22,074 nucleotides of DNA from the IMG/VR virus record IMGVR_UViG_643348545_000012; one strand, given 5' to 3'. Made by a program: the position numbers and the translations under genes. Source of the DNA: a virus. Taxonomy: Duplodnaviria; Heunggongvirae; Uroviricota; Caudoviricetes. Under the pieces are notes generated by a model, which was not told the origin of the DNA, did not search any database, and saw only the letters and a program-made list of their open reading frames with translations. Shown here piece by piece: positions 2,110 through 21,428 of this stretch. The number at the start of each line of letters is the position of its first letter. Position 1 is the first letter of the stretch.

Positions 2110-2119
2110 AGATATCCTT

Positions 2120-5899: not shown

Positions 5900-5931
5900 T
5901 TAATTTCGATTATTTTTCCCGGATGGAAAAT

Positions 5932-5976: not shown

Positions 5977-5983
5977 CCGTTTC

Positions 5984-6070
5984 GCTGAAAAACATAACCC
6001 ATAAAATGCTAGCTGTACCAGGAACCACCTCCTTAGCCTGTGTAATCTCCCTTACACGGGCTTATTTTTT
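5984..6070 (+). ncRNA. cyaR: CyaR (RyeE) Hfq-dependent small RNA, 87 nt, with Rho-independent terminator
   Basis: Sequence gctgaaaaacataacccataaaatgctagctgtaccaggaaccacctccttagcctgtgtaatctcccttacacgggcttatttttt matches the CyaR sequence as I recall it; 3' hairpin (gcctgtgtaa / ttacacgggc) followed by a T-run. Confidence 0.8.
6044..6070. repeat. P2-type attachment core (27 bp, aatctcccttacacgggcttatttttt), left prophage junction; overlaps the cyaR terminator
   Basis: Exact 27-bp direct repeat with 21402-21428; reverse complement equals the P2 att core sequence as I recall it. Confidence 0.75.
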
Positions 6071-6134
6071 ACGCGTAATACAATGAAATAAAAGGATTTA
6101 TTTCTGGTCACGTCCACACATTGACCACATCGAC

Positions 6135-6158
6135 AAAAAAGCCCCTCGACTGAGGGGC
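6135..6158 (-). terminator. Rho-independent terminator downstream of ogr (hairpin GCCCCTC-gact-GAGGGGC with T-run on the minus strand)
   Basis: Perfect 7-bp stem at 6141-6158; aaaaaa at 6135-6140 gives a U-tract on the minus strand directly after the stem. Confidence 0.6.
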
Positions 6159-6171
6159 TTTCTGTTTGTAA

Positions 6172-6390
6172 TTACATCCACATAATTTGCTGCCCTGACG
6201 GCAACGGGTGCGGCCTTACGGCGTGGACTTCTCCCGGCTTCACGATGTATCTCTGTACCGACTCATAAGTGATGAACGTGGCGCTGCAATTCACGTTCTG
6301 GCACTGGTGATAACGCTCTTTTGTCGTGTCAGTGATATAGCGGCTTGTACGCGCATGTGCGGCATGCTGGCATAAAGGACAATGAAACAT
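6172..6390 (-). CDS. ogr: Ogr-type zinc-finger late-gene transcriptional activator (72 aa)
   Basis: Internal Met of the 99-aa ORF gives MFHCPLCQHAAHARTSRYITDTTKERYHQCQNVNCSATF..., a C-x2-C...C-x4-C zinc finger matching P2 Ogr / E. coli OgrK. Confidence 0.9.
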   Translation of the reverse strand: MFHCPLCQHAAHARTSRYITDTTKERYHQCQNVNCSATFITYESVQRYIVKPGEVHAVRPHPLPSGQQIMWM

Positions 6391-6470
6391 CGCGAGCACC
6401 TCTTCCGGTTTTGTTAATGGTGCCATTTTATTTAATTTATCCTTATAAAACAAACAGATAAAACAAAACA

Positions 6471-7634
6471 TTAATCATCATCTTCTGTTTCGTACTCCAC
6501 ATCAGAAAGCCTGACCTCAAGCTCTAAGGACGTCGTGAAGCCGCTATTATTCAGAAAATGTGTCACCTTAGTGATTGTCCAGTCCTGCTCGTCTATGACG
6601 CGCTTAAAGCCTGACACTCTGACCGGTGTTTCCGTGTAAATATCAGCACGACCAGTGGCAAGGCTGATGGAGAACTCCGCAACGCCCCGTTGCAGTTTAT
6701 CCCACTTCGCCTGAGCGGCGCGCATGGCCTGCGCTTTCGTGGCATATACCGTGGTCAGGGCAAAAACGTTGTCAGCTTCACCGGCCATGTATTCACCTTC
6801 GCGCGCTTCCGGTACTTTTGGCGCTTTCTTCTGCGTGACTGGTTTCGCTTTCGGGTGCTCCAGTGCGCGCAGGTGTTTCTCTTTCTTTTTGCGTTTCAGT
6901 TTTACCTTCTGCTTTTGCGGCTTCGGGTCTTTGGTGTGTAACCACTTTGCCGTTACGCCGGTATAGGCTCCACGGTCAGCAATCGCAAAATGATGGCGGT
7001 CGCCGTCGCTGCGGGTTATGGTGACCTGCGGGATTTTTTTACCGCTGGCCGTCACCCCCTGCCCCGCTTTGAGAAACAACAGTTTTCCCATTTTTACCGA
7101 CACCTCACCGCCGTTGCGTTCTGCAAGACGGGTCAGGAATTTCGCATCAGACTCCTGCGACTGGTCGATGTGCGGGATTTTAATTCCGGCCAGTGACGGC
7201 GCGACACTGGCTTCCAGCCTGTTACGGGAGGCTATCGCCTCAACAATCGCACCGAGCGTGGTGTCATGCCATGACCCTTCACGGCGGGAATTGAGCGTCC
7301 CGCGAAAATCTGCACTCCGGGCGCGGATGGTGACCACATCCGGTGCGCCCCGGTGTTCAACCTCATCAACGGTAAATTTCCCTTTGCATACCAGGGCAAA
7401 ACCTTTCCAGCCGATATACACCTTCAGAACAGCACCACGAACCGGCAGTTCGACCTGCCCGTCGGCATCGTTCAGTTCAATATCAAGCTGGTCAGCCTCA
7501 AAGCCCCGGTTATCCGTCAGGGTCATGCTCATCAGACGGTCGCTGATATTGCCGGTAATATCCCTGCTGTCGAGCATCAGCATGTAATCCGGCGTCAGCG
7601 TACTGCCTGCATCAAATGTCAGCGCATCCAGCAT
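6471..7634 (-). CDS. D: P2-like tail protein D (late control gene D product)
   Basis: 387 aa ORF, same length and gene order as P2 gpD (immediately upstream of ogr). Confidence 0.9.
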   Translation of the reverse strand: MLDALTFDAGSTLTPDYMLMLDSRDITGNISDRLMSMTLTDNRGFEADQLDIELNDADGQVELPVRGAVLKVYIGWKGFALVCKGKFTVDEVEHRGAPDVVTIRARSADFRGTLNSRREGSWHDTTLGAIVEAIASRNRLEASVAPSLAGIKIPHIDQSQESDAKFLTRLAERNGGEVSVKMGKLLFLKAGQGVTASGKKIPQVTITRSDGDRHHFAIADRGAYTGVTAKWLHTKDPKPQKQKVKLKRKKKEKHLRALEHPKAKPVTQKKAPKVPEAREGEYMAGEADNVFALTTVYATKAQAMRAAQAKWDKLQRGVAEFSISLATGRADIYTETPVRVSGFKRVIDEQDWTITKVTHFLNNSGFTTSLELEVRLSDVEYETEDDD

Positions 7635-8113
7635 TATCCCGCCCCCGTCATACCCGTGAATCTGGTCGCCACACTGCCAGCCTTACCGATGAGCGATTCC
7701 GCCTGTTTACCGATATCGCCATAAAGCGCGGCCAGTGATTCATCCACGCGGGTGAGCGACAGCGTAAAATCAATTTTCCGGGGTGTGCCGTCTGCAAAGA
7801 AAATACTCCCTGTTTCACTCACCCTGCTGATGACATACATGCCGTAAATCATGCCGGTGCCATCCAGCAACGGCCACGCCCGGCCTTCCTCTGCCATCAG
7901 CCTGAGCGTGGTCATCGTCAGCTTCCCGCCGGTCAGTTCGGGATAAAGCACGCCGGCAAGCGTCATGTTTTCCTCACCCACACCGAGAAACTGAAAGGCA
8001 TCCCGTTTACCGATACGGGAATTTGACGGCCAGCGATAATCTGATTCACGCTGCATGGTCTGGTGTGGCAGCGTCTGGCGCATAAAAACAAACATACCTA
8101 ACGCGAGCATCAT
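7634..8113 (-). CDS. U: P2-like tail protein U
   Basis: 159 aa ORF; position between T and D; stop overlaps the D start (coupled). Confidence 0.88.
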   Translation of the reverse strand: MMLALGMFVFMRQTLPHQTMQRESDYRWPSNSRIGKRDAFQFLGVGEENMTLAGVLYPELTGGKLTMTTLRLMAEEGRAWPLLDGTGMIYGMYVISRVSETGSIFFADGTPRKIDFTLSLTRVDESLAALYGDIGKQAESLIGKAGSVATRFTGMTGAG

Positions 8114-8127
8114 TTTTCGTCACCTCC

Positions 8128-10575
8128 TTAACCGTCATGCATCATGCTGGCACGGGCACGCGCACGTTTATCCCGCTCGTATTTTTCGAGCGCATCCTGT
8201 AACTGGCGGTCAAGCTGTGTCCCCGGCGCAGTACCACCCGTCAGGCTGATGTGATATTCGTTTTTACTCTGGTCCACATAAGAGCGGCCAGCCAGTGCCG
8301 TGACTGGCTGATAAGCCTGATAGCCTGCATAAGAGCTGGTCGCCGGAATATAACCACCGGTGCCATACGTGGCGGCATGAGTTCTGGCGGCGGTCTGGTC
8401 AAGTGTGTCTGACTCTTTGTTGATGACCCCGAGCTTTTCCAGTACCCAGGCAATACCGCTGCGCAGTTTGTTGAACGCATTAAGCGGCAGCATCAGCGCG
8501 TCAGCCAGTGCCTGCCCGAACATGACACCCGTGTCACGGCAACGGTTCAGGGTGTCCTGGGTGGCTTTGACCGGGGCAATCAGGTTTTTAAACCACTGCC
8601 ACGCGGCCTGTAACTTTTCGCCCAGCCAGTCAAACACCGGCTTAAGTGGCATGAACAGTTCCCCCACCGGCGCAAATGCCGCTTTCAGCCCTTCCACCAC
8701 ACCGCCAAAGAATGCGCTGACAGGCTCCCAGTATTTACGGATAAGCAACGCCCCGGCGACAATGGCGGCCACCACGGCCACAACCGGCCAGCTAATCGCC
8801 CCGATGGCCGTCATAACAGCACTGCCAACCGTCGTGAAGATTGCCCCCATTGCGCCTGCTGCCGCGATAATGGCATTGATGCCGGTGATAACCGGCCAGG
8901 CTACAAGACCAATGGCACCGATGATGCCAGTCAGCGCCAGTGCGCCACCGGCAATGAGGCCGGTGGTTGACGCCAGTGATTTGTTTTTCTGGATCCAGCC
9001 GTCGAGTTTTAGCACATACTTTGTGGCTGTCTGCGTGAGATTACGCAGTGCGCCTTCCTGCTGGTCAAACAGGTCAGTCCCCACCGCCTCATAAGCGGAC
9101 TGAAACTCCTTAAAGTCACCGCCGAGGTTGTCCTGCATGATATTTACCAGCTCGGCGGTCTTCCCGTCTGAGGCTTTAAACGCAGCGGTCAGTTTGTCCA
9201 GCTTTCCGGTTGAGGCGGCAGTCATCAGCACGGCGGCGGCTGAGCTGGCCTCTTCCCCGAAAATAGTTTTCATGTATTCAGCCTGCTGGGCAGTACCGAG
9301 CCGGTTTTTCTCAAAACTGGCCTGCATTTCTTTCAGAATGGTAAATACTGGTCGGGTGTTTCCCTTGCTGTCTGAGGTTTTCACACCAAGCTCTTTCAGT
9401 GCATCCCACGCTTTTCCCGTCGGTGCCTGCAGGCGGCTTAACACGGCACGGCTTCCCGTCCCCGCCATTGAGCCTGTGATTTTTGCATCATGCAGCGCCC
9501 CGACCATTGCGGCGGTTTCTTCAATGCTGACACCGGCATTTTTTGCCACAGGTGCGGCATAGGTCAGCGCATCGCTCATGCCGTCAAAATCGGCGGCGGT
9601 TTTGTTCATCGTCATGGAGAGAACATCCCCGATATGAGCGACCTTATCGTTTGAAAGCTGAAAGGCGGATTTCATCCCCATCAGCAGGGCGGCGTTTTCT
9701 TCCATCGTGCGACGGTTCGCCAGCGCCATATTCAGCGTGACCGGCGTTGCCGCCTGAATGGCATCAACATCCCCACCGGCTTTTGCAATGATAATCTGCG
9801 CACCGGCTGCATCATCCGCCGAGGCGGCGGTGTTGTCGCCGAGCTGGCGCGCCTGTTTGCGGAGCGCGGCCATTTCGGCGGAGTCTTTTGCCACGCCGAG
9901 CACAGCCTGTAATTCTGAGTTTTTCTGCGCAAACTCATAACCGGGCATCAGCAGCTTAACTCCGGCCATCGTTCCCGCCGCCGCAATCCCCACACCGGCA
10001 GCGCCCACTGAGGCCATATTTCCGGCCAGTTCCTTTCCGGCCTGATAACGCTGTTTGACTGCGTTAAGTTTTGCCTGTTGCGCGCTGACACGCGCCAGCG
10101 CGTCACGCTGCCGGTTAAGCTGCGCGGTGGTTTCACTGATACGGTTTTTCAGCCCCTGCTCATCATGTGCAAGATTGCGGGTATTAATTCCCACAGCAGC
10201 CAGTTCCCGCTGCTGGCGTTTAACGGAATCCGTCAGGCGGTTATATTTCGCCTGTAAGTCCTCCGCCGCTCGCTTTGCGGATTCCAGCACTTTCGCCTGA
10301 GCACGGGTCGGACGTTCGGTATTTTTAAACTGTGTGGCAAGGGCTTCGGCTTCCAGCCGTGCCTTCTCAAGTGCATGACCAGTCACGGCGAGCTGTGCGC
10401 TGGTCTTGCGAAATCCCTCAATACGGGATGCGTGACCGTTCAGCTCGCGCAGTGATTTTTGTGTGTCCCGGATATCCCCCGACAGCGACTTGCTCGCTGT
10501 ACGGATGGATTTAAACGGGCGGGATGCCTGGTCAACAGCCCTGAGCAATACCTGTAATTTTACATTGTTACTCAT
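8128..10575 (-). CDS. T: Tail tape-measure protein (P2 gpT-like)
   Basis: 815 aa ORF with coiled-coil-rich N-terminus and Gly/Ala-rich hydrophobic central segment, typical of tape-measure proteins; lies directly downstream of E/E'. Confidence 0.92.
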   Translation of the reverse strand: MSNNVKLQVLLRAVDQASRPFKSIRTASKSLSGDIRDTQKSLRELNGHASRIEGFRKTSAQLAVTGHALEKARLEAEALATQFKNTERPTRAQAKVLESAKRAAEDLQAKYNRLTDSVKRQQRELAAVGINTRNLAHDEQGLKNRISETTAQLNRQRDALARVSAQQAKLNAVKQRYQAGKELAGNMASVGAAGVGIAAAGTMAGVKLLMPGYEFAQKNSELQAVLGVAKDSAEMAALRKQARQLGDNTAASADDAAGAQIIIAKAGGDVDAIQAATPVTLNMALANRRTMEENAALLMGMKSAFQLSNDKVAHIGDVLSMTMNKTAADFDGMSDALTYAAPVAKNAGVSIEETAAMVGALHDAKITGSMAGTGSRAVLSRLQAPTGKAWDALKELGVKTSDSKGNTRPVFTILKEMQASFEKNRLGTAQQAEYMKTIFGEEASSAAAVLMTAASTGKLDKLTAAFKASDGKTAELVNIMQDNLGGDFKEFQSAYEAVGTDLFDQQEGALRNLTQTATKYVLKLDGWIQKNKSLASTTGLIAGGALALTGIIGAIGLVAWPVITGINAIIAAAGAMGAIFTTVGSAVMTAIGAISWPVVAVVAAIVAGALLIRKYWEPVSAFFGGVVEGLKAAFAPVGELFMPLKPVFDWLGEKLQAAWQWFKNLIAPVKATQDTLNRCRDTGVMFGQALADALMLPLNAFNKLRSGIAWVLEKLGVINKESDTLDQTAARTHAATYGTGGYIPATSSYAGYQAYQPVTALAGRSYVDQSKNEYHISLTGGTAPGTQLDRQLQDALEKYERDKRARARASMMHDG

Positions 10576-10995
10576 TCGTGTTTCCGCTTCGCCGGAGCGC
10601 CTTTTCGCGCCATGTGATGAGTTCGGTCAGGCTCATGGGATACAGTTCTGATGGCGGCCAGTGAAATATCACTGCCACATCCGCCATCAGGTCATCGACC
10701 GACAGATTTTTCGGAAACGTCACTGCACCGAGTTCGGCGACAAAAAACCGACCACCTTACCGGCCAGCGCCACAAGGTCAGGCAGTTCCAGCGCGGCGAC
10801 TTCCTGCTCGGTCAGCATCGGTGCCGTCATGCGCGGCAGCACCTTAATCAGTGCATCGACTTCGGAGTTTGCAACCGCAGCCAGACTGACACCGCGCAGC
10901 GTCCCGGCATTGGGTTTCATCAGCGTGACCTGTTCGATAACCTGCTCACCACGTTTGACCGGATTTTCCAGGGTAATGACATTTTCTTTGTTCAT
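10568..10995 (-). CDS. E': E+E' fusion produced by programmed -1 ribosomal frameshift at T_TTT_TTG (reverse complement of 10741-10747); E' extension ends at TAA 10568-10570, overlapping the T start
   Basis: Slippery heptamer read directly; the -1 frame is open from the slip site to 10568 and encodes ...FFVAELGAVTFPKNLSVDDLMADVAVIFHWPPSELYPMSLTELITWREKALRRSGNTNE; frame arithmetic is consistent with a -1 shift; matches the known P2 E/E' mechanism. Confidence 0.7.
10720..10995 (-). CDS. E: Tail assembly chaperone E (P2 gpE-like), 91 aa
   Basis: ORF MNKENVITLENPVKRGEQ...GFLSPNSVQ; position between FII and T; contains slippery heptamer near its 3' end. Confidence 0.88.
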   Translation of the reverse strand: MNKENVITLENPVKRGEQVIEQVTLMKPNAGTLRGVSLAAVANSEVDALIKVLPRMTAPMLTEQEVAALELPDLVALAGKVVGFLSPNSVQ

Positions 10996-11051
10996 GGTTT
11001 TCTCACTTCTGAATCAGGGTTAACCGGTCAGCCTGGCTGACCGTATGAAAA

Positions 11052-11570
11052 TCACAGGCCGATATTTCGGCGGTGTTGCTCCAGCCGGTCGACGCCGTTC
11101 ACCTTCTCAATCATGTTGATGGTGTCGATTTCGACCAGCTCCTTACCGTCCATCGTCAGCCGGAAATAAGTACAAATCACCGGGAGTTTCGATTCGGTAT
11201 CCTCTCCCTGTTTACCCTCTCCGGTGTCGACTTCTTTCTGACGCCCACGCATGACCACTTCGACGGCCACCGTTTCGCCGGTATCGTCGCGCTGGTAAGA
11301 ACCAGCAAAACGAATCGGTACGGCATCAGCACTGGTTGCAGCGTAAAGCTCCCAGATAACCGAATCCGGGAAACCCCCGAGCGACCACTCCATTGACAGC
11401 GCATCGTCATCAAGGCCGAGGTCTACCGGTGCGCTGCCGTTCATCCCCGCACCGCGATAATTTTCGAGCTTACGGGTCAGTTTTGGCAGCGTGACGGACG
11501 TTGCAACGCCCTGATAGCTGTAGCCGTTCAGAAAGACATTCATGTATTTGAGTTTGCGCGGCATTGCCAT
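11052..11570 (-). CDS. FII: Major tail tube protein (P2 gpFII-like)
   Basis: 172 aa ORF, gene order sheath-tube-E-T as in P2. Confidence 0.9.
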   Translation of the reverse strand: MAMPRKLKYMNVFLNGYSYQGVATSVTLPKLTRKLENYRGAGMNGSAPVDLGLDDDALSMEWSLGGFPDSVIWELYAATSADAVPIRFAGSYQRDDTGETVAVEVVMRGRQKEVDTGEGKQGEDTESKLPVICTYFRLTMDGKELVEIDTINMIEKVNGVDRLEQHRRNIGL

Positions 11571-11582
11571 CGGTCAGGCTCC

Positions 11583-12773
11583 TTAATTGCTGTTAACCGA
11601 GGTGACCAGATTTGCCAGGTATTTATCGGTAATACGCTGGCGCAGGGTCAGGTTTTCGAGAGGAGGCACCGGGGTATAGTCGTAGTCGATATACAGTTTT
11701 CCGGCCTTGAGGGTTTCCGCATCGTTGGATTCTTCGCTGAACCAGCAGGTCGCATCCACGATATAGCCGTTTGTTTTCAGCTCTCGGAATTTGGCATTGA
11801 TGCCGTCAACGATGTCGCGAATCAGCGTTGCGGTGATGGGCTTGTCCACCGCCCACATGTGCGCCTCAGCCATCGTGTCGGCCAGCACCTGCGCGGTGCG
11901 GGTGTAGTTTTCAAAGAGGAACAGCGGGTCATCAGAGCAGGTACGGTTACCCCAGAAGCGGAAACCGTCACGGCGAATCAGCGTTGTGACGCCTGACTCG
12001 TTAAGCAGGTCAGCATCGGTGCCGGACTCCTGCAAATCCCAGAATACGGACGCGCTGATGCCGGTAACACCGTTTACCCCGACGTTGGACAGCGTTTTAT
12101 GCCAGCCCTGCTCCTGGTCGATTTTAGCGCGCAGACCCAGCGCACGGGCGGTGGCATACGCGGTGGCGGTGGTACTGGTGACCGTATCCCATGCGAGGAA
12201 ATCCGGCCAGATGACCATCAGCTCACGCTGGCTGAAATTCTGGCGGTAGGCTTTCACCTCGGAAATGGTCTTACAGCCCCATGCGCTGATATATCCGAAA
12301 GCGCGCAGCTTCTGACAGACGGATGCCAGTGCAACAGCCACCTCTTTGGTATCCAGTCCCGGCACACCGAGAATACGCGGTTTAACACCGGTTACCGACT
12401 CCGCCGCCAGCAGGGCTTTTAGTCCGGTGTACTGACCGTTTTCGTCGGTGGTGCCGATGATATTGGAAACGGTCTGCGCGAGTTTCGTTTCCTCGTCATC
12501 ACCGGTGCCGTCTTCCACGCGCACGACAACGGTGACCGGTTTTGACTGGTCAGCGATGGCCTGCAACGATGCCGCCAGCGTGCCTTTTTTACCGGCCTTT
12601 GCAATTGCGCTTTGCACATTGGTAATCAGCACCGGTTTATTGAGGGGGAAGGTTTCCGCATCCGCATCGCTGGCCGTGCAGACCATGCCGACAATGGCAG
12701 TGGATACGGTGGAAATGACGCGGGTGCCGTCGTTAATCTCCAGCACCTGCACGCCATGATGATAGTCACTCAT
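11583..12773 (-). CDS. FI: Tail sheath protein (P2 gpFI-like)
   Basis: 396 aa ORF beginning MSDYHHGVQVLEINDG, same length and position as P2 gpFI. Confidence 0.92.
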   Translation of the reverse strand: MSDYHHGVQVLEINDGTRVISTVSTAIVGMVCTASDADAETFPLNKPVLITNVQSAIAKAGKKGTLAASLQAIADQSKPVTVVVRVEDGTGDDEETKLAQTVSNIIGTTDENGQYTGLKALLAAESVTGVKPRILGVPGLDTKEVAVALASVCQKLRAFGYISAWGCKTISEVKAYRQNFSQRELMVIWPDFLAWDTVTSTTATAYATARALGLRAKIDQEQGWHKTLSNVGVNGVTGISASVFWDLQESGTDADLLNESGVTTLIRRDGFRFWGNRTCSDDPLFLFENYTRTAQVLADTMAEAHMWAVDKPITATLIRDIVDGINAKFRELKTNGYIVDATCWFSEESNDAETLKAGKLYIDYDYTPVPPLENLTLRQRITDKYLANLVTSVNSN

Positions 12774-12869
12774 CCGTTTAACTCCGTGGTTAATGGGTGC
12801 AACTATTTTCTGTTGGGCAGTGCATGAGACGCTATTTGACCTGACTGGTCAGTGGATGAAACAACAGAT

Positions 12870-12898: not shown

Positions 12899-12952
12899 TC
12901 CTGATTTGTACTCACTCATTTTCCGCCTGACAATTTACATAGCCCAAATGCT

Positions 12953-12975
12953 ATCAAATCTGACAGTCTGCTTTG
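12953..12975. repeat. Site A: atcaaatctgacagtctgctttg, copy 1 of a ~22-bp putative recombination site
   Basis: Shares the exact 11-mer ctgacagtctg plus flanks with sites at 15262-15284 (direct, 21/23) and 15384-15405 (inverted). Confidence 0.6.
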
Positions 12976-13103
12976 AGCGAAAAGTGGACATTAGAGTTAC
13001 AAAAGCAAGTTTAAATCATCCAAAATATTACAATGTCCTTATCTATCTGATATCGTTATAATAAAAAGCTCCTGAATATAATCGATAGTAGGTGGTTATT
13101 TCC

Positions 13104-13481
13104 ATGAAATCAATTTTAGAGGTTTTTACTCAAGGAAATACTAAAGAAAAACTGGCTGTTATCGCCGATCTCACAACCATTGCGGGAATATCGATTGCAA
13201 CTATTATTGCTGGTTTGTTAACCCTAGTTGCAAAAACAGATAAACTAGATGTTGGAAATCTGTTTGGAGTTGTCATAATATCTCTGCTCGGATTGGCTGG
13301 TGTTTGCTGTTTTGTGGCCTTATTTATTTGGGTTATAACCCAAATGTCTAAACCATGGGGAACACCTCGGGGGGTTCAGCCCTTAGTTAAGTGTGCTATT
13401 TCCCTTATCTTTATCTGTATGTTTTTGCTGGCTGTCTTTACATTTTATGAGTTTATTTCTTCGATGAGCATACGCTATTGA
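13104..13481 (+). CDS. Small integral membrane protein (about 125 aa, 3 predicted TM helices), cargo gene
   Basis: ORF in track (13092..13481, likely ATG at 13104 with aggtgg RBS); three long hydrophobic stretches; AT-rich. Confidence 0.55.
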   Translation: MKSILEVFTQGNTKEKLAVIADLTTIAGISIATIIAGLLTLVAKTDKLDVGNLFGVVIISLLGLAGVCCFVALFIWVITQMSKPWGTPRGVQPLVKCAISLIFICMFLLAVFTFYEFISSMSIRY

Positions 13482-13503
13482 ATATAAAATCAGCCCCCAT
13501 AAC

Positions 13504-14088: not shown

Positions 14089-14194
14089 ATTCAAATCTCC
14101 TGCAATGTGGGAGATTTGAGTATGGTTGTCTCTCAAGAGCGAAAATAAGTCAACTATCACTAGTTGTTGCGCATGTACGTATTCTGTCAATTAA

Positions 14195-15037
14195 TTATTG
14201 ACAATCATCAATTCTGGAATGATCAAAATCATCATATCGAATTATAGTCTGGTTGACTGTATCTATTGTTGGTGTCATTTCTGTTATAATATCCTGATAA
14301 CCTAAAGAGTTAAATACATTTACTAAGGCCTCACACCGAAGGGCCGTAGCAATTACAAAATTATAAATTGCCAGCCGTTTATTTTCTTGTTTAACTGCAA
14401 GAATGAATTCGATAGCAGTATTTTCATCACTTTGGATTGCATTATATAGAGATACTATATTTACCATATCATCAGAGAATGTATGTATTGAATCACAAAG
14501 GGGAACGTAATGGGCATGATAGTGTGTTTCCCAGCCAATTAATTCAAAAAGTTTTCTGGTTCCTGGATATTCAGGTGTATTTGGCCACAATCTATTAAAT
14601 AGATCAGTTAGTTCTTTTCCCATGCGAATCCTTTCATTTGCTGCTGGATTAGTCATTCCTTTGGATTTTAAACACTCCAGCCACCGTTTTCCATTACTAT
14701 GAACTAATTTCTTACTAGCCTTGAGTAATGCTTGTGCATTTTCGCCATCATCTATTGCTATATAAAATTGATTGGCAGCCTGTTCTATTATAACCCTAGC
14801 TAATACTTCCGATGCTGAAAAGGCTCCTATATTCAAAGAAGAGATAGCCTGATTACTAAGTTCATTCAGTACATTAAAGTACTGTAAGACCATCAATTTT
14901 TGTTCCACACCCTTTAGGTTGTCTATTTTATTTTTATGCTCCTCAAATTTTGCATGGATATATTTATTTATCGCGGCTATTTTTTTTACATCTTCGTCAA
15001 GATCAAACGGGCAACGTCCAAACAATTCTTTTTTCAT
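14195..15037 (-). CDS. Hypothetical cytoplasmic protein (280 aa), cargo gene upstream of the recombinase
   Basis: ORF with AGGAG RBS 7 nt upstream of ATG; AT-rich; no recognisable motif (no RT YxDD, no clear nuclease or HEPN motif). Confidence 0.6.
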   Translation of the reverse strand: MKKELFGRCPFDLDEDVKKIAAINKYIHAKFEEHKNKIDNLKGVEQKLMVLQYFNVLNELSNQAISSLNIGAFSASEVLARVIIEQAANQFYIAIDDGENAQALLKASKKLVHSNGKRWLECLKSKGMTNPAANERIRMGKELTDLFNRLWPNTPEYPGTRKLFELIGWETHYHAHYVPLCDSIHTFSDDMVNIVSLYNAIQSDENTAIEFILAVKQENKRLAIYNFVIATALRCEALVNVFNSLGYQDIITEMTPTIDTVNQTIIRYDDFDHSRIDDCQ

Positions 15038-15075
15038 ATATTTCTCCTGTTGTACAAGCTTCCATAAGTTGGCAG

Positions 15076-15110
15076 ATTATACACTGAAGATTACCTATAA
15101 ATAGCTGTGC
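15076..15110 (-). promoter_or_regulatory. Candidate sigma70 promoter for the 280-aa cargo gene (perfect TATAAT on the minus strand at 15081-15076; weak -35)
   Basis: Reverse complement of attata at 15076-15081, about 38 nt upstream of the ATG at 15037; -35 element poor, so speculative. Confidence 0.3.
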
Positions 15111-15261
15111 GGGATAGCAGATCAGTGCAAGAAGTACAACCAAGTGAATGTGCGTATTCAGATACCTGGCCTAACGTTCGCGATAGCCGTCCCCTGCACG
15201 AAGCCATATATTAGATGTATTAGCTCAGACCTTATCTGACAGGTTGAGTAGGTAGAATCTA

Positions 15262-15284
15262 ATCAAAGCTGACAGTCTGGTTTG
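15262..15284. repeat. Site B: atcaaagctgacagtctggtttg, direct copy of site A
   Basis: 21 of 23 positions identical to site A; read directly. Confidence 0.6.
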
Positions 15285-15383
15285 GACTGTGAGTTCAACC
15301 GATGGATGCAACACACAGCGATCTACGGACATTACTAGCATAGCTGTGTATTAATCATCGGGAAGCAGGTCAGTCCGCTCCTA

Positions 15384-15405
15384 GCACAGAGCAGACTGTC
15401 AGATT
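15384..15405. repeat. Site C: inverted copy of the site (reverse complement aatctgacagtctgctctgtgc); also part of a 10-bp-stem hairpin tagcacagag...ctctgtgcta (15382-15423)
   Basis: Reverse complement matches site A at 20 of 22 positions; lies 47 bp downstream of the G stop codon. Confidence 0.6.
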
Positions 15406-15457
15406 AGGCTTTACTCTGTGCTATAGATACGTTAGCTCACTCCAGAGATCATACAAC

Positions 15458-15985
15458 TTATTGCGGCATTTCCGGCCATTCAGGATTTGCAGGATCCACA
15501 CGGCTGACCAGAACACTGTAGCGTTCCCATGCTTCCAGTCGGCTACGCTCCTCATCTGTTGCCATATTCAGTCTGACAGAGCGTTCCAGTGGCTGAATGA
15601 TAGTTTCAGCTTCGGAAAGCAAAGCTGACTTCTGTAATTCCGCCAGTTGCAGCTGTTCGTCTGCCGTATAAATCCGCTTAATCACGGCACCATCCTTAAA
15701 CATCCATTTACCTGAGTCATCAGCACGTCGGTTGGCGGTAATATCAGGAACCTCGACAACGCTAAAACCTTCAGGGTTGAGCGTTGAAGCATCTCTGGTG
15801 ATGCCGACAATTATATTATTCTCATCGTAAACAATCTTTATCGTGTCTTCCTGAAAATTACTTACTTCCTCATACCAGTTTTTTCCCTCTTCGGACCATA
15901 ACCAGATAACATCAAAATTTTTTGTCAGTTGATATTGGGCAACAGTTTTTGGATTACCCGCAGTAATATTTTTTAAATGCTGCAT
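15458..15985 (-). CDS. G: Tail fiber assembly chaperone (P2 gpG-like)
   Basis: 175 aa ORF immediately downstream of the tail fiber gene; same length as P2 gpG; Tfa-like sequence. Confidence 0.88.
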
Positions 15986-15988
15986 AAA

Positions 15989-18094
15989 TTACACCTGTGC
16001 GACGTTATACCATGTGCCATTGATGTATTTTTGTATTGGTCTGAATACTGCGGGGTCATCACCATCGACTTCACCGACAATACCAAGCCCGGTAATTACG
16101 TGCCCTGCTTTCTCATACATCACCCCTTTCTGCATGGTCTGGACAACACGTGTGCCAAGTCTGACATCTCTCACATAGCGGGAATCAAAGTTACCGTAAT
16201 CCGAGGGATTAACACGCCCCGTAATATTTATGGTTTTATTACTTTGAACGCTTCCGGAGACAAAGCGCATAACATGGACGCTATTAGCATAAACATCCAG
16301 ATTACCATCACCATTTTGTTTAAAGCCCGTGTCATTATCACCCAAAACAATCGAATTACCGCCAAGAGCACTGGATGTTCCTATACCCAGAGCACCATTC
16401 AATTGACCACCAGATAATGATAACGCCCCAACATCAGCAGCAGTCGGTTTAATGTACGAACTGTAAATTACATATACAGTTCCATCTGTCAGGCCTGTTG
16501 GTTTATTCGCTGTATAAGTTGGTGATGTATGAATCGTTACGCTGGCGTTACTGGTATAATCCCACTGAATATTAACACCTGTGGCGTAATTACCTATTTC
16601 AACATAAACATCATAGGTATCACCGGATGTATTCACCCATGCAAAATTAGTAAATCCAACCGATGTCCGTCGCCATAACGCACCAGTAAGACCTTTTGGA
16701 TTTCCATTTCCCGCACGAAGAACAAGTTCAGATATACCAGCCTGCATAGGGGAGTTAACATTATATCCGGCACCACCAATCAGGCTTATGTAAACCACGG
16801 AACTGGCCTGGGGCATGGTTACAGTTGCCAGCCTGAACCATCCTGTACCACCACTAAAAGACATGGTTGTTGAATTTGTTGCTCCAATATTGCGCAGGAA
16901 TAATCTTTTATCAGGAATATCCGCACCGTTCTGATCTTTCTGAAGACGTTTTTCAGCATTGTCATAGGCAGACTTCACCGCTTTTGGTGTTGCGGCCAGT
17001 GTTTCAGAATCACTGTTGGTGGCGCTACTGAGCTGAACAAGCCCTTTTCGCGCTGTGGTGGCATCCTGTGCAGTGTATTTCCCGTTAGCAAGGTCATACG
17101 CGACCTTTACCGCCTTTGGCGTTGCCGCAAGCGTTTCAGAATCACTGTTGGTGGCGCTACTGAGCTGGACAAGGCCTTTTCTCGCTGTGGTGGCGTCCTG
17201 TGCAGTGTATTTCCCGTTAGCAAGGTCATACGCGACCTTTACCGCCTTTGGCGTTGCGGCCAGCGTTTCAGAATCGCTGTTGGTGGCGCTACTGAGCTGA
17301 ACAAGACCTTTTCGCGCTGTGGTGGCGTCCTGTGCAGTGTATTTCCCGTTAGCAAGGTCATACGCGGCCTTTACCGCTTTTGGTGTTGCGGCGAGCGTTT
17401 CAGACGTGCTGTTGGTGGCACTACTGAGTTGGACAAGACCTTTTCGCGCTGTGGTGGCATCCTGCGCAGTATATTTCCCGTTAGCAAGGTCATACGCGGC
17501 CTTTACCGCTTTCGGCGTTGCAGCCAGTGTTTCAGACGCGCTGTTGGTTGCACTGCTTAACTGAGTAAAACCTTTTGCGGTCAGCGAGGCGTCCGGGTGA
17601 CGTCGTGACTGTTCATGCTCTGCAATTTTGTCATCAACGTAATCCTGCGTTGCCATCACCGTTGTGGTGTCAATGGTCAGCTCCACTGAGGCCACACTGC
17701 TGACGATGATGACCATGCGGCAGGTCTGCGAACGCCCTGAGCCTTCGGCAAGAGCGGGTTTATAACTTTCAGCCATGTTCGCCACGGCAATTAGCGTTCC
17801 CGCATCATCGTACAGGCCAAGCTCACGCATCCAGAAACCGCCCACCTCCGGCGGAATAACCAGCTCTGCGATAATATAATTACTGTTTCGTTTGTCCAGG
17901 GTGATTTTGTTCAGCGCATGTCGCCAGACTTCATGGATAAGCCCGGTCTGTCCGGCATCCGGGACAGGCAATTTACCACCGCCATCCCCGACGGCCATCG
18001 TGGTAATGTTGACCTTCCGCCCTCCCGGTGCGGTTGCCGCTGCCAGCTTTGCTGCACCGGCAGTGGTGATAACGGTTTTGAATTTTGTGCTCAT
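15989..18094 (-). CDS. H: Tail fiber protein (P2 gpH-like) with internal 44-aa tandem repeats
   Basis: 701 aa ORF; N-terminus MSTKFKTVITTAGAAKLAAATAPGG resembles the conserved fiber N-terminal baseplate-attachment region; C-terminal half divergent. Confidence 0.92.
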   Translation of the reverse strand: MSTKFKTVITTAGAAKLAAATAPGGRKVNITTMAVGDGGGKLPVPDAGQTGLIHEVWRHALNKITLDKRNSNYIIAELVIPPEVGGFWMRELGLYDDAGTLIAVANMAESYKPALAEGSGRSQTCRMVIIVSSVASVELTIDTTTVMATQDYVDDKIAEHEQSRRHPDASLTAKGFTQLSSATNSASETLAATPKAVKAAYDLANGKYTAQDATTARKGLVQLSSATNSTSETLAATPKAVKAAYDLANGKYTAQDATTARKGLVQLSSATNSDSETLAATPKAVKVAYDLANGKYTAQDATTARKGLVQLSSATNSDSETLAATPKAVKVAYDLANGKYTAQDATTARKGLVQLSSATNSDSETLAATPKAVKSAYDNAEKRLQKDQNGADIPDKRLFLRNIGATNSTTMSFSGGTGWFRLATVTMPQASSVVYISLIGGAGYNVNSPMQAGISELVLRAGNGNPKGLTGALWRRTSVGFTNFAWVNTSGDTYDVYVEIGNYATGVNIQWDYTSNASVTIHTSPTYTANKPTGLTDGTVYVIYSSYIKPTAADVGALSLSGGQLNGALGIGTSSALGGNSIVLGDNDTGFKQNGDGNLDVYANSVHVMRFVSGSVQSNKTINITGRVNPSDYGNFDSRYVRDVRLGTRVVQTMQKGVMYEKAGHVITGLGIVGEVDGDDPAVFRPIQKYINGTWYNVAQV
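16961..17572. repeat. Tandem repeat, 132-bp unit, about 4.6 copies, encoding the 44-aa motif SETLAATPKAVKxAYDLANGKYTAQDATTARKGLVQLSSATNSx inside the tail fiber gene
   Basis: Near-identical DNA units begin at about 16978, 17110, 17242, 17374, 17506; also visible as duplicated antisense ORFs 17055-17300 and 17319-17564 in the track. Confidence 0.9.
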
Positions 18095-18104
18095 TATTCC
18101 TCAC

Positions 18105-18635
18105 TTATCCGGGGTAAACCGTAATTACATCGCCGTCGTAAGCCACACCACCGGCGAACAGGTAGCCGGGAATGTCCCGGGTAATGTTCAGGCCAATAAG
18201 GTGACGGCTTGCAGGTTTGGCATCAGCAATCAGCCGTTCCATTTCCTGATACATTGCCTCTGTGATACCGCTTTCCAGTACACCAATATCAAGCCGGAAG
18301 GTGCCGGGCGGGTCACTGTTTTCCCACCACTCCGTCACGTTGATGAGATAGCCGAGCGGCTCCACCACACGCCGGATTGCACCTATCGTGCCCTTATGAC
18401 AGTGGATGAAATAGGCATCGCGGATAACGGCGCGTTTTGTCGCTTCCGGCCACTTTTCATCCCATCTGTCGACCGAAAACGCCCACGCCAGCCACGGCAG
18501 CAGATTTGCCGGACAGGTATTCGGGTTCCACAGATCACGAATACTGACCGGCGTTTTTTCAATTTCCGCACAGGCTTTTGCGGCGGCAACTTCAAGCGGT
18601 GATGAGCCGGTCGGCAGCAGTCGCGAATCACTCAT
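18105..18635 (-). CDS. I: Baseplate assembly protein I (P2 gpI-like)
   Basis: 176 aa ORF, position between J and H. Confidence 0.9.
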   Translation of the reverse strand: MSDSRLLPTGSSPLEVAAAKACAEIEKTPVSIRDLWNPNTCPANLLPWLAWAFSVDRWDEKWPEATKRAVIRDAYFIHCHKGTIGAIRRVVEPLGYLINVTEWWENSDPPGTFRLDIGVLESGITEAMYQEMERLIADAKPASRHLIGLNITRDIPGYLFAGGVAYDGDVITVYPG

Positions 18636-19536
18636 CCGAGCCTCCGGTCACGACGTGGTATTCGGTACAGAAAGACGCCTGCGTACTGTTGAGCACGATA
18701 TCGACCAGTGGTGCAGCCAGTTCGACACGCTGCACGCCTTCCACATGCAAAGCGGCATAAATGGCAGACAGACGGATGTCGCGCCCCAGCCGGTGCTGTG
18801 CCGTGATGTACGCTTCCAGTTTTTTCACGGCAGCAGCGCGGATGGGTTCGCTTTCGGGACCAGGGTAAAGGTAAAGCGTGGCGTTTATCTGGTATTCAAC
18901 GATGGCGGCAGACTGCACGGTCACGCGGTCGGCCACCGGCCTGACGTCCTCGCCATTAAGGGCGTTACGCACCACCGCCAGCAGGTCTTCGGATGCGACA
19001 CCGTTATTTTCACGTGACAGCACAGAGATGGTGACGCAGGCCGGAGACGGACTGGTGACAGAGATATCCGCGACACGCCCGTCGGCACTGCGACCATGAT
19101 ACTGATAAGCCCCCACCGACCCGGCGACGCTTAAACCTTCAAACGCCTGCTGAATACGCAGACGATAATCCGTGTCAGATTCCATCACGGCCGGTGTCGG
19201 CGGGAGGGTCGAATCATCTGCCGGGGTGATAGTCAGACGCGTGGTGTTGTAATTGGCACCAATCACATCAAGGTCATTACCGGCGGCACAGGCCAGCATT
19301 ACCGCCCGTGCGGCCTCATTCACACGCTGACGCCAGATAAGCTCACGATAAGCATTTTCCTCCAGCAGTTTGACGAGAGGCTCGGATTCCAGCATCAGGG
19401 CACGGGCGACCGCCTCCTGCTGGTCTTCCGGGTAAAGGGAAATCAGTGTCGCCTTGCGTTCAGCAAGAATGGTTTCAAAGTCCAGCTCCTCGACCACATC
19501 CGGTGCGGGTAGCTGGTTCAGGTCGATAATCGGCAT
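18628..19536 (-). CDS. J: Baseplate assembly protein J (P2 gpJ-like)
   Basis: 302 aa ORF, overlaps I start by 8 nt, gene order W-J-I. Confidence 0.92.
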   Translation of the reverse strand: MPIIDLNQLPAPDVVEELDFETILAERKATLISLYPEDQQEAVARALMLESEPLVKLLEENAYRELIWRQRVNEAARAVMLACAAGNDLDVIGANYNTTRLTITPADDSTLPPTPAVMESDTDYRLRIQQAFEGLSVAGSVGAYQYHGRSADGRVADISVTSPSPACVTISVLSRENNGVASEDLLAVVRNALNGEDVRPVADRVTVQSAAIVEYQINATLYLYPGPESEPIRAAAVKKLEAYITAQHRLGRDIRLSAIYAALHVEGVQRVELAAPLVDIVLNSTQASFCTEYHVVTGGSDE

Positions 19537-19540
19537 GGTT

Positions 19541-19888
19541 TCAACTCACAGGGATGGTTAACGAAAGTGGCTGGCCGGTGTCGTTGTGCTGGCCGGTTAA
19601 CGTGACCGTCATTCGCCCGTCAAAACTGCGCGCCGTGGTGACGGATGACAGGGTGACGCGGGGTTCCCATTTCAGCACTGCCATGTAACAGGCGACTTTA
19701 ATCTGCAACTCAAGCGCCGGGGTCTGCGGCTGGTCAATCATTGACGCCAGCAACGAGCCGTAATCACGACGCATCACCCGTGAGCCGACCGGTGTGCGCA
19801 GGATATCGCCGATACTCTGGCTGATATGCTCAAGGTCAGTGACAGTCAGGCCATCACTGCGATTCATTCCGAGATAACGCGCTGTCAT
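19541..19888 (-). CDS. W: Baseplate protein W (gp25/GPW family)
   Basis: 115 aa ORF beginning MTARYLGMNRSDG; start overlaps V stop (ATGA). Confidence 0.9.
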   Translation of the reverse strand: MTARYLGMNRSDGLTVTDLEHISQSIGDILRTPVGSRVMRRDYGSLLASMIDQPQTPALELQIKVACYMAVLKWEPRVTLSSVTTARSFDGRMTVTLTGQHNDTGQPLSLTIPVS

Positions 19889-20520
19889 AGAGGTCCCCCT
19901 GTTGTGCCGCCACTGTCGCCGGGGTGTTTATGGGTATGCAGTACCTTACCGTTTGATGAGAGTTCACCGCCGGTGTGTTCAATGTTGCCGCGCATCGTCC
20001 CGCCCTTCTGCACTTCCAGCGTGCCGGTAATCAGCCTGTTGGTGCAGACCACCTCCGGTGTGTCCAGGGTGACGCGGGTTGATGCTTTCACCATGACCAC
20101 CGGCACCGTGGCAGTAACAGAATCAGAAGCCGTCACGCTGGCCGTTTTAATTCCGCTTACCGTAAGTGCACTGGTTTCGGGTTCATACTCAATCACCACC
20201 CCGTCAGGGAAACGGATATGCAGGGCATCCGCCGACGCAGACGGCGCGGGGTTATCGCCGGAATAAATTCCCGGCAGAACGAATGCCGTGTCGAGTTCAC
20301 CGCCCACGGACAGAATCAGCACCTGTTCCCCCACGGAAGGTGCCCACCATGTGCGCGAACGACCGGCGCGATGGGTCAGCCACTGAAGCCAGTCGGTGCA
20401 CATGCCGCCGGTCTGCACGCGGCAGCGACCGGCGTTAAGGTCGGTTTCGACGATAATGCCGGTGCGAATCATGTTGCGCAGTGCGCGCGCGAGTTCCTGA
20501 ATATTTGCGAGAGTGTTCAT
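19885..20520 (-). CDS. V: Baseplate spike/assembly protein V (P2 gpV-like), 211 aa
   Basis: Track ORF begins at a TTG at 20538; the ATG at 20520 gives MNTLANIQELARALRN, which I take as the P2 gpV N-terminus. Confidence 0.9.
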   Translation of the reverse strand: MNTLANIQELARALRNMIRTGIIVETDLNAGRCRVQTGGMCTDWLQWLTHRAGRSRTWWAPSVGEQVLILSVGGELDTAFVLPGIYSGDNPAPSASADALHIRFPDGVVIEYEPETSALTVSGIKTASVTASDSVTATVPVVMVKASTRVTLDTPEVVCTNRLITGTLEVQKGGTMRGNIEHTGGELSSNGKVLHTHKHPGDSGGTTGGPL

Positions 20521-20603
20521 GCATGTGAGATTGCACAATATATAAAAGTTATGCTATCTGGATTCATTTGTAGAACTACCAGACAACATTCAAGGAGAGC
20601 GTA

Positions 20604-21317
20604 ATGGTCAGCTATAATGTGACTAATGTGTGGGGGCTAATCGTTTTTTTCCTTTGTAGCTTTGCAGTATTAGCATTTTTTAGCTTTGGTAAAAGTAACC
20701 TTATGAGGCTTATTGCACATTATTTCAATTTTGGATATTCAGACAAAAAATTAAAAAGACTTGACCGCGAGTGGCGCGACATTCAACTATTTAAAATAAT
20801 TAATGGAATCAATGTATCAGGCATTGAAAATGTGAGAATGATACAGCAGGGACTGATTGATGGAAAACTAAAAACATCGTATTTTTCCCTTACTCGCATC
20901 TGGGGTGACATAACAAAACCACCACACATAATTAAAACAATAATTGTAATTCTGGCCAGTATTTTTTACATTCTCCTCGCATGTTACATACACAACGAAC
21001 AATCCGTTATAGTAAGGGATGCCATAGGCATACCATATAAAAACATGATGTACTATGTTTATAGTGACAAAGTTCTTTTATCCTTCAAAAATAAAGCAGT
21101 TGAATTTAATAAAACTTATAGCCTTGCCGATTGCAAGAGACTGCAAAACGTATTTATAAAAGACACACTTCCTGAGATCGCCTGCAATAAGCTCTTACAG
21201 CTAAACGAGGAGGACTCCGAATGGTTAAGCCAGGAGATTAAAGATAATAACAGTCACAAAAAAGCATTATTAATACTATCCCTGAAGCCGAGAGTGTCCA
21301 CACAGTGTCCACAGTAG
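20604..21317 (+). CDS. Hypothetical AT-rich membrane protein (237 aa, two hydrophobic segments), divergent from V; prophage cargo
   Basis: ORF with AGGAG RBS 6 nt upstream of ATG; very AT-rich relative to adjacent tail genes; TM-like segments VWGLIVFFLCSFAVLAFFSF and IIKTIIVILASIFYILLACYI. Confidence 0.55.
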   Translation: MVSYNVTNVWGLIVFFLCSFAVLAFFSFGKSNLMRLIAHYFNFGYSDKKLKRLDREWRDIQLFKIINGINVSGIENVRMIQQGLIDGKLKTSYFSLTRIWGDITKPPHIIKTIIVILASIFYILLACYIHNEQSVIVRDAIGIPYKNMMYYVYSDKVLLSFKNKAVEFNKTYSLADCKRLQNVFIKDTLPEIACNKLLQLNEEDSEWLSQEIKDNNSHKKALLILSLKPRVSTQCPQ

Positions 21318-21401
21318 AGTAACGTTTAAGGGCTTTCAGTGGTAATTTATGCCGCTCAAACCCGCATTGTACCGTTGAAAGCCCCTACTGGTGACACCCT
21401 A

Positions 21402-21428
21402 AATCTCCCTTACACGGGCTTATTTTTT
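21402..21428. repeat. Second copy of the 27-bp P2-type att core (right prophage junction)
   Basis: Exact direct repeat of 6044-6070; followed by a hairpin gggcttat...ataagccc. Confidence 0.7.

Follow-up and report, generated by a model that had tools for sequence, protein, structure and literature searches.

P2-type insertion at the 3′ end of cyaR

The window, the whole 22,074-nucleotide stretch of DNA analyzed here, matches the E. coli ED1a chromosome (CU928162.2) at 100% identity. A repeat search of the window identified a 28-nt direct repeat with exact copies at 6044 and 21402, the first 27 nt of which align to P2 24356–24382 and are the annotated P2 attP core; the original prediction that two 27-bp att cores bracket the element is thus correct. 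The left core overlaps the 3′ terminator of CyaR (Table 1), placing the P2 attachment site inside the end of the sRNA gene. Fusing the flanks of the window at the core recovers the empty yegQ–yegR site of E. coli HS, as expected for a P2-like (Peduoviridae) remnant whose core repeats lie at a known attB, and indicates a true P2-type insertion. The element sits at the classical P2 site locI, at the 3′ end of cyaR between yegQ/trhP and yegR.

The attachment regions beyond the cores are also preserved. The segment adjoining attL aligns without gaps to P2 24255–24355 and is near-identical, with five mismatches clustered in the core-adjacent IHF-site segment. At the opposite end, the segment preceding attR equals P2 save for one mismatch between the deletion junction and the P′ arm; this arm is complete and lies within the last 41 bp of int, whose stop codon remains at 21320–21322.

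Late genes and control sites

A tblastn search of the window with all P2 (NC_001895) proteins (E < 1e-3) revealed 13 full-length P2 late genes (ogr, D, U, T, E, FII, FI, G, H, I, J, W, and V), which are 89–100% identical to their P2 counterparts with the exception of the divergent C-terminal receptor-binding part of H. The order of P2 is kept from ogr through V, as well as for orf30, consistent in both order and homology with a member of the Peduoviridae. The tail gene set, predicted to be complete, is not, as it lacks X, R, and S. The control sites match expectation: ogr is intact, as proposed, and keeps its own −35 and −10 elements upstream (about 6391–6470), and the frameshift site GGTTTTTTG is indeed preserved at 10741–10749, such that the −1 frameshift product E+E′ has 142 amino acids, the same as in P2. 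The pF late-promoter region upstream of FI (about 12774–12900) differs from that of P2, yet retains a TGT-N12-CCA element like that of P2 pF. Within H, tandem 132-nt (44-aa) repeats span 16955–17614.

Table 1 Features of the ED1a element and its attachment sites
Feature	Position	Strand	Details and evidence
CyaR (RyeE) sRNA gene	5982..6067	+	Rfam RF00112, 100.7 bits, E = 2e-19
Left att core (attL)	6044..6070		Same as 27-bp P2 attP core; repeat and P2 alignment
P2 P-arm Int sites, IHF site, ogr/F-operon terminator	6071..6171	-	P2 alignment, P2 feature table
ogr, late-gene activator	6172..6390	-	72 aa, 100% identical to P2 Ogr; tblastn, P2 alignment
D, baseplate hub/late control D	6471..7634	-	387 aa, 98.2% identical to P2
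U, tail protein	7634..8113	-	159 aa, 98.7% identical to P2
T, tape measure protein	8128..10575	-	815 aa, 98.2% identical to P2
E/E′ region	10568..10995	-	E = 10720-10995, 91 aa
FII, tail tube	11052..11570	-	172 aa, 95.3% identical to P2
FI, tail sheath	11583..12773	-	396 aa, 98.7% identical to P2
Low-GC cargo island at P2 Z/fun position	12900..15457		GC 35-44%
Membrane ORF in cargo island	13092-13481	+	129 aa
Tyrosine recombinase ORF in cargo island	13504-14190	-	Catalytic domain only; Pfam Phage_integrase, E = 1.5e-17
DUF5677 protein in cargo island	14195-15037	-	Pfam
G, tail-fibre assembly protein	15458..15985	-	175 aa, 89% identical to P2
H, tail fibre	15989..18094	-	701 aa; N-terminal part P2-like, C terminus divergent
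I, baseplate protein	18105..18635	-	176 aa, 98.9% identical to P2
J, baseplate wedge protein	18628..19536	-	302 aa, 98% identical to P2; tblastn, PHROG
W (gp25-like), baseplate wedge protein	19541..19888	-	115 aa, 100% identical to P2; tblastn, PHROG
V, baseplate spike	19885..20520	-	211 aa, 97.2% identical to P2; tblastn, PHROG
pV late promoter (Ogr-binding site about 20562-20589)	20521..20603	-	100% identical to P2 10225-10310; P2 feature table
Truncated orf30, now a chimeric 237-aa ORF (WP_000255500.1)	20604..21317	+	Between V and attR
Deletion junction, orf30 side against int side	21282..21283		2-nt "CT" microhomology; comparison with 98233 and GIMC1405
Last 41 bp of int, P′ arm (21288-21314), Cox-binding region (21312-21385)	21283..21401	+	P2 comparison, P2 feature table
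Right att core (attR)	21402..21428		Same as P2 attP core; repeat and P2 alignment

A cargo island of ≈2.6 kb (12.8–15.46 kb) takes the place of P2 fun(Z) between FI and G, with proteins assigned to PHROGs 4155, 216, and 4167. The same cassette is present in the prophages of strains S88, 98233, and GIMC1405, and megablast comparison of the island with isolated phages gave matches confined to its conserved flanks. PADLOC returned no match for the cargo proteins or the truncated Orf30 and only a marginal one (E = 0.0013) for a flanking DUF4034 protein. The claim that no integrase lies between the cores needs qualification: P2 int is gone save for its last 41 bp, but the island encodes a tyrosine recombinase catalytic domain.

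A single junction probably accounts for the missing genes

The same search gave no match in the window for Q, P, O, N, M, L, X, Y, K, lysA, lysB, lysC, R, or S, nor for int, C, cox, B, A, old, tin, or fun(Z), which bears out the prediction that capsid, terminase, lysis, replication, and immunity genes, as well as R and S, are absent, and adds the essential gene X to the list. The stretch that is kept corresponds to P2 coordinates 9545–24502, so that the loss amounts to 18,635 bp. The match to the 98233 prophage stops at 21283, whereas that to the int end of GIMC1405 begins at 21282. Codons 1–227 of the 261 in orf30 remain, 99% identical to P2 Orf30 and joined out of frame to the end of int. 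The functions for autonomous lytic growth were therefore lost through one junction, as in defective Peduoviridae remnants. Because that junction carries just 2 nt of microhomology, illegitimate recombination is the simplest reading. There is no IS element at the junction, and we rejected an IS-mediated deletion; a deletion by Int was likewise rejected, for although the end point falls 6 bp past the P′ arm, the junction shows only the 2-nt microhomology.

Age and distribution of the deletion

Overall, the element is 99.2% identical in nucleotides to the prophage of strain 98233 over 15.2 kb, and only 12 differences fall within 9500–21283 (11.8 kb, 0.1%). The 98233 prophage is apparently complete. 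Nucleotide identity between the two is 100% in E, FII, G, H, and W; FI, I, and J each carry one synonymous difference, and V carries two non-synonymous ones. The junction is spanned nowhere among 5,426 complete E. coli genomes, and the chimeric ORF occurs on about 18–28 contigs, of which all eight retrieved equal the window at 100% identity. The junction was thus seen only in contigs identical to ED1a, with no vertical conservation following head-gene loss of the sort expected of a tailocin. One clean junction, the 0.1% divergence, and restriction to the ED1a clone strongly support the recent deletion that had been offered as one explanation for the intact ORFs. No close relative of ED1a with the undeleted parent prophage at locI was found, which bounds the age of the deletion only indirectly.

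Values of dN/dS against relatives are low (0.08–0.16). We discarded this ratio as a measure of post-deletion selection, since nearly all the substitutions are older than the deletion; the low values reflect a history as a functional phage and neither back nor exclude later selection.

Other P2 remnants at locI

Across a spread sampling of strains, locI holds P2-like prophages at several stages of inactivation. In S88, an IS21 lies inside capsid gene N. GIMC1405 carries a lysC′–A′ deletion and is head-less with its tail genes kept, but retains R, S, int, C, and cox, all of which the ED1a element lacks. NCTC9100 retains ogr-D′-E′-cargo-G-H and ET881 retains ogr-FI′-cargo-G′-Q′; unlike ED1a, both have already lost most tail genes. 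K-12-type strains have only ogrK-D′ left. The end points of truncation differ from strain to strain (GIMC1405, NCTC9100, ET881, and S88), and the deletions and IS insertions that inactivate P2-like prophages at this site are independent events. Common, decaying deletions in related strains had been named in advance as evidence against a selected module, and this is the pattern observed, with truncated elements in K-12-type strains, NCTC9100, ET881, and GIMC1405 and an IS21-disrupted one in S88.

The cryptic K-12 remnant (ogrK and yegZ, the latter being D′) shares with the ED1a element its site, orientation, attL, and attL-adjacent ogr. It holds just ogr and a fragment of D, with a deletion that reaches into the right att core, whereas in ED1a 13 late genes are still intact, the cargo island is present, and attR is complete. 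In K-12 and B, the cryptic ogr genes were reportedly functional (Slettan et al. 1992). In gene order, promoters, frameshift site, and att sites, the ED1a element is like intact P2 and the 98233 prophage; compared with P2, it is without head, terminase, X, lysis, R, S, replication, immunity switch, and int genes and has different cargo at the Z/fun position.

Discussion

The element is very probably a defective (cryptic) P2-like prophage of ED1a that arose by one recent deletion. A complete P2-like prophage would have integrated at locI, after which a single illegitimate, microhomology-mediated deletion of ≈18.6 kb (in P2 coordinates) would have fused orf30 at codon 227 to the final 41 bp of int. 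This one event would have taken S, R, lysC/B/A, K, Y, X, L, M, N, O, P, Q, the old/tin hotspot, A, B, cox, C, and most of int, and left behind pV with the V-W-J-I-H-G operon, the cargo at the Z/fun position, the FI-FII-E/E′-T-U-D operon, ogr, and both complete att sites. Judged by its gene content, the remnant is unable to excise itself or replicate, to build heads, to complete tails (X, R, and S being missing), or to lyse the cell. We attribute the intact ORFs to too little time for decay since the deletion rather than to demonstrable selection. Both late promoters and both att sites are untouched, as are the slip site and ogr together with its promoter; a selected module would look the same, and this we counted against our reading.

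Among the alternatives, it is unlikely that the host benefits from the non-tail genes (the DUF5677, recombinase-domain, and membrane proteins of the cargo, the truncated orf30, or ogr) while the tail genes hitch-hike. Variable loci of P2 are known to act as reservoirs for genes of anti-phage function and lysogenic conversion (PMC9122126), and defective P2-like elements with conserved cargo have already been described in which the defense genes are near-identical and probably functional (PMC13586616). The conservation of the ED1a cassette in S88, 98233, and GIMC1405 fits such a benefit, as does the persistence of ogr and of cargo ORFs at the Z/fun position past truncated tail genes in the more decayed ET881 and NCTC9100. 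The cassettes of the latter two strains consist of different genes, however, none of the cargo proteins has a PADLOC match, and recency by itself accounts for retention in ED1a.

We consider it distinctly improbable that the element works as a conditional module, in which the activator of an infecting P2-like phage or P4-like satellite, or the resident Ogr, turns on pV and pF and the resident tail and fiber proteins enter or poison the invader's virions. Int and Cox of the invader might also excise the element, which is conceivable given that both att sites are complete. If such a module existed, it would alter the host range of the progeny or act as a defense by assembly interference.

Selection for function as a tailocin or helper, the second explanation originally put forward, fares worse and is very unlikely. 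A domesticated R-type tailocin or tail supplier would have Ogr activate pV and pF to yield tail-like particles that kill competitors or serve a satellite or phage, with missing functions provided from elsewhere in the genome. The 13 retained genes, ogr among them, are all intact, as are the frameshift site and both late promoters, and P2-derived enterobacterial tailocins do exist, including dickeyocin P2D1 (PMC10719855) and xenorhabdicin (PMC13280938); like these and R2 pyocin, the ED1a element groups sheath, tube, baseplate, and fiber genes of P2 type without head genes. Such loci, though, have an X/"glue" homologue, lysis genes, a stress-responsive regulator, and genus- or species-wide conservation, whereas the ED1a element has none of them and is limited to a single clone that shows no diversity. 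The annotation of the P2 record marks X, R, and S as essential tail genes, and all three are missing from the window. P2 X matches Glue PA0627 in the R2 pyocin baseplate structure 6U5B (E = 2e-8), so that even R2 pyocin, minimal as it is, has an X homologue as a structural part of its baseplate. Neither homologues of Y, K, lysA, lysB, and lysC nor any holin, endolysin, or spanin are present in the window. With C and cox deleted, ogr is the sole regulator, and no stress- or SOS-responsive regulator of the PrtR/PrtN or CI/DinI type is present, unlike in real P2-type tailocin loci; those for xenorhabdicin keep a CI repressor and DinI and are flanked by ogrK (PMC13280938).

The supply of tails to a satellite encounters a similar difficulty. 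A P4 helper provides capsid (N, O, Q, and L), terminase (P and M), a complete tail, and lysis under activator control. P4-type satellites require helper capsid and lysis genes too, and the window is devoid of capsid, terminase, X, R, S, and lysis genes alike.

Finally, the idea that assembly collapsed or wrongly joined the prophage in the ED1a reference is effectively refuted by the same junction and chimeric ORF being present in NCBI assemblies made independently (GCA_9639665xx), as well as in Logan assemblies from three different sequencing runs. We considered such an artifact only because the ED1a assembly is an older, Sanger-era one, and found no evidence in its support.

As a defective prophage, the remnant may still have some capacities. 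To be expressed, its late operons would probably need a supply of Ogr, or of the activator that a P2-like phage or P4-like satellite brings in, and Int and Cox of a P2-like phage could probably still excise it in trans. Recombination or marker rescue can presumably use it as a substrate. Selection may even have favored the loss of the lysis, replication, and switch genes, as this loss would have removed the risk of lytic development.

Nothing suggests that the element acts as a weapon or as a helper; it is a defective prophage of an ordinary, known kind, and the finding has little import beyond correct annotation. Intact tail ORFs between att sites are not, on their own, evidence of domestication; here, their state is explained by the 0.1% divergence from a live phage and the restriction to one clone. 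The element offers a natural example of the first step in prophage decay, in which one microhomology deletion strips the lysis, replication, and switch genes, and it belongs in a visible series of ever-smaller P2 remnants at the cyaR/yegQ–yegR site. It might also be a convenient substrate for work on marker rescue or excision in trans.

Results

The chimeric ORF at the right end of the window identifies its source as Escherichia coli ED1a, and positions 10604-22074 are 100% identical to the ED1a chromosome (CU928162.2). ED1a is a B2 commensal of humans whose sequence comes from Touchon et al. 2009 (PMC2617782); E. coli S88 gives a 98.8% match to window positions 1-16417. The first 27 nt of the direct repeat are the annotated P2 attP core, and joining the window flanks at this core yields, almost base for base, the unoccupied yegQ-yegR region of E. 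coli HS. The repeats thus delimit a real P2-type chromosomal integration at locI, the classical P2 attachment site, as the original prediction of two 27-bp att cores implied. In attR, the P' arm, Cox-binding region, and core are all identical to P2; in attL, the P arm is identical and the sole mismatches lie in the IHF-site segment adjoining the core.

Because the cyaR gene ends inside the left core, the locI att core is the cyaR 3' terminator, and P2 integration rebuilds the 3' end of this sRNA out of phage sequence. The right core is an orphan second copy. The P2 P-arm Int-binding sequence recurs beyond attR in degenerate form (...CTGGTCACC...CCATTGACCACATCGA...); this copy also adjoins the core in the unoccupied HS site, so that the locI 'attB' itself looks like a scar left by a far older P2-like integration. 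The low-GC island of the left flank occurs in S88 and ED1a (both B2) and is absent from GIMC1405, HS, ET881, and NCTC9100, where yegP adjoins yegQ; its sole PADLOC match is marginal (PDC-S32, E = 0.0013). The AT-rich segment near yegR is missing in HS and GIMC1405, and its first 118 bp (the query reached 21700) are found in B2 strains such as S88.

Table. Features of the window and of the P2-like remnant.
Feature	Position	Strand	Description
Left flank	1-5899		low-GC island (DUF4034, DUF1266, PcfJ proteins), then yegQ/trhP
Low-GC island	1-4500	-	DUF4034 (715+ aa), DUF1266, PcfJ-domain proteins; between yegP and yegQ
CyaR (RyeE) sRNA gene	5982-6067	+	Rfam, 100.7 bits
Direct repeat	6044 and 21402		35 nt, 28 nt of which exact
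ogr			full-length, 100% identity to P2
D			full-length, 98.2% identity to P2
U			full-length, 98.7% identity to P2
T			full-length, 98.2% identity to P2
E			full-length, 97.8% identity to P2
FII			full-length, 95.3% identity to P2
FI			full-length, 98.7% identity to P2
Cargo island	12900-15457		P2 Z/fun variable locus; 2.6 kb, low GC (35-44%)
G			full-length, 89.1% identity to P2
H			full-length, N-terminus conserved, C-terminus divergent vs P2
Repeats in H	16955-17614	-	tandem, 132 nt (44 aa), four to five copies, 77-100% identity
I			full-length, 98.9% identity to P2
J			full-length, 98.0% identity to P2
W			full-length, 100% identity to P2
V			full-length, 97.2% identity to P2
Chimeric ORF	20604-21317		237 aa; WP_000255500.1, E. 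coli O81 strain ED1a
Second CyaR terminator/core	21402-21428		orphan copy
Degenerate P-arm copy	21441-21489		attR bacterial side; 71% identical to 6099-6147
AT-rich segment	21583-21751		169 bp, upstream of yegR
Right flank			yegR

We searched the window by tblastn with all P2 proteins as queries. Thirteen late genes are full-length and 89.1-100% identical to their P2 orthologs, H diverging at its C terminus, whereas no match was found in the window for Q, P, O, N, M, L, X, Y, K, lysA/B/C, R, S, int, C, cox, B, A, tin, old, or fun(Z). Orf30 is matched over residues 1-227 of 261 only, and it is this truncated orf30 that occupies the space between V and attR. The same assignments come out of PHROG scans. 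Across the pV promoter region with its activator-binding site, identity to P2 is 100%, the ogr promoter keeps its -35 and -10 elements, and the GGTTTTTTG slip site is kept, the E+E' -1 frameshift product being 142 aa as in P2. The original prediction was therefore right about ogr, the frameshift site, and the lack of capsid, terminase, lysis, replication, and immunity genes and of R and S. Its "complete" tail set does not hold, the essential baseplate gene X being missing besides R and S; P2 int is unmatched, but the cargo island holds a tyrosine recombinase ORF.

That recombinase (194-228 aa) comprises the catalytic domain alone, with RGCDL, HSMRR, LLGH, and RY motifs spotted by eye, and is accompanied by a 129-aa membrane ORF (+ strand) and a DUF5677 protein. 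PADLOC returned no match for the island's proteins. The identical cassette is present in prophages of S88, 98233, and GIMC1405 and may form a system for lysogenic conversion or defence that is as yet uncharacterised. The orf30 slot between V and S is also a variable cargo position, orf30 being replaced by a 'GTP pyrophosphokinase' (RelA/SpoT-like) gene in S88 (retrieved locus L001, 25799-26878) and GIMC1405 (L003, 19799-20878). H measures 669 aa in P2, 701 aa in the remnant and 98233, and 911 aa in S88, which suggests that changes in repeat number alter fibre length.

The origin of the remnant can be read at its junction. Similarity to the 98233 prophage (99.2% identity) spans 6083-21283 and ends inside orf30, and the GIMC1405 locI prophage aligns through its int-attR-yegR end from 21282 onwards; where ...ACTATCCCT meets GAAGCCGAG..., both parents share only 'CT'. 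The last 13 int codons (...AESVHTVSTVE-stop) are kept out of frame, giving the chimeric ORF the tail KPRVSTQCPQ-stop. Because P2 coordinates 9545-24502 are kept, 18,635 bp are missing. The endpoint lies 6 bp beyond the P' arm, with no IS element at the junction, and the simplest reading is one illegitimate, microhomology-mediated deletion in the integrated prophage. The 98233 prophage (NZ_CP173445.1, about 2086-2116 kb) is apparently complete and encodes, between Q (portal) and A (replication), an ATP-binding protein and a DNA cytosine methyltransferase. It adjoins fieF/pfkA rather than locI, so a single phage lineage makes use of more than one att site.

The deletion is recent, as one of the two original proposals held. 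Compared with the 98233 prophage, E, FII, G, H, and W show no nucleotide difference, FI, I, and J one synonymous difference each, and V two non-synonymous ones; window positions 9500-21283 (11.8 kb) hold 12 differences only. The other ~100 cluster in ogr-D-U-T (dN/dS about 0.13-0.16), a recombinational mosaic patch of the typical kind. A search of 5,426 complete E. coli genomes gave no match that spans the junction. Index entries for the chimeric ORF cover about 28 blocks (18 contigs), and each of the eight retrieved loci agrees with the window at 100% identity over 2.3-20.7 kb, save for an IS1-associated rearrangement downstream in one. The deletion is thus private to the ED1a clone, and independent assemblies confirm that it is real.

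We surveyed locI by spread sampling of matches and annotated regions, which revealed a decay series. The site is empty in most genomes (e.g., HS). In strain 05-3629, the P2-like prophage shows no truncation within the fetched locus, which reaches into the lysis genes. S88 and other B2 strains share the prophage type, cargo, and flanking island of ED1a, with capsid gene N interrupted by IS21 in S88. GIMC1405 has lost its head genes through a lysC'-A' deletion, which spared the tail genes as well as R, S, int, C, and cox. Smaller remnants are found in NCTC9100 (ogr-D'-E'-cargo-G-H), ET881 (ogr-FI'-cargo-G'-Q'), and K-12-type strains (ogrK-D'). Defective P2-like elements with conserved cargo were described recently (PMC13586616). 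Comparable deletions are thus common and decaying in relatives, an observation that the original prediction had named as counting against it. The ED1a remnant, in a genome public since 2009, is one more defective P2 remnant at locI, a well-known class.

Discussion

Selection for function, the other original proposal, does not follow from the intact ORFs. Even if all 12 differences arose on the ED1a side after the deletion, and taking our estimate that ~4% of random substitutions create a stop, the expected number of disabling changes stays below 0.5, so ORF integrity carries no information about selection; X, R, S, lysis, and switch genes are also missing. P4-type satellites need their helper's capsid, terminase, and lysis genes, all missing from the ED1a element. 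P2 is not known to be SOS-inducible, so mitomycin C would not be expected to switch the element on.

A tailocin role fares no better. The element contains neither a holin, endolysin, or spanin nor a C/cox switch or SOS-linked regulator. X, R, and S are annotated as essential tail genes in the P2 record. For P2 X, the matching structures are its own, solved by NMR, and the 'Glue PA0627' chains in the baseplate of the R2 pyocin (6U5B, E = 2e-8), so even a minimal contractile bacteriocin has an X-type protein as a structural part; for R and S, no solved structure is related in sequence. Xenorhabdicin loci keep spanin, CI repressor, DinI, and OgrK (PMC13280938), whereas the ED1a element is without spanin, CI, and DinI; conservation of dickeyocin P2D1 extends across Dickeya species (PMC10719855), in contrast to a deletion private to one clone.

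Most likely, the remnant is immobile and no particles can come from it. Its late operons are probably silent until Ogr builds up or an activator arrives with an infecting P2-like phage or P4-like satellite. Were an invader to supply one, intact remnant genes could complement or recombine with it. Int and Cox in trans could excise the remnant; with neither cos site nor origin, the excised circle would be lost. The host may have gained mildly from the loss of the lysis, replication, and switch genes. Of what remains, the cargo cassette and ogr are the likeliest to be of consequence to the cell, since cargo ORFs and ogr survive in more decayed remnants.
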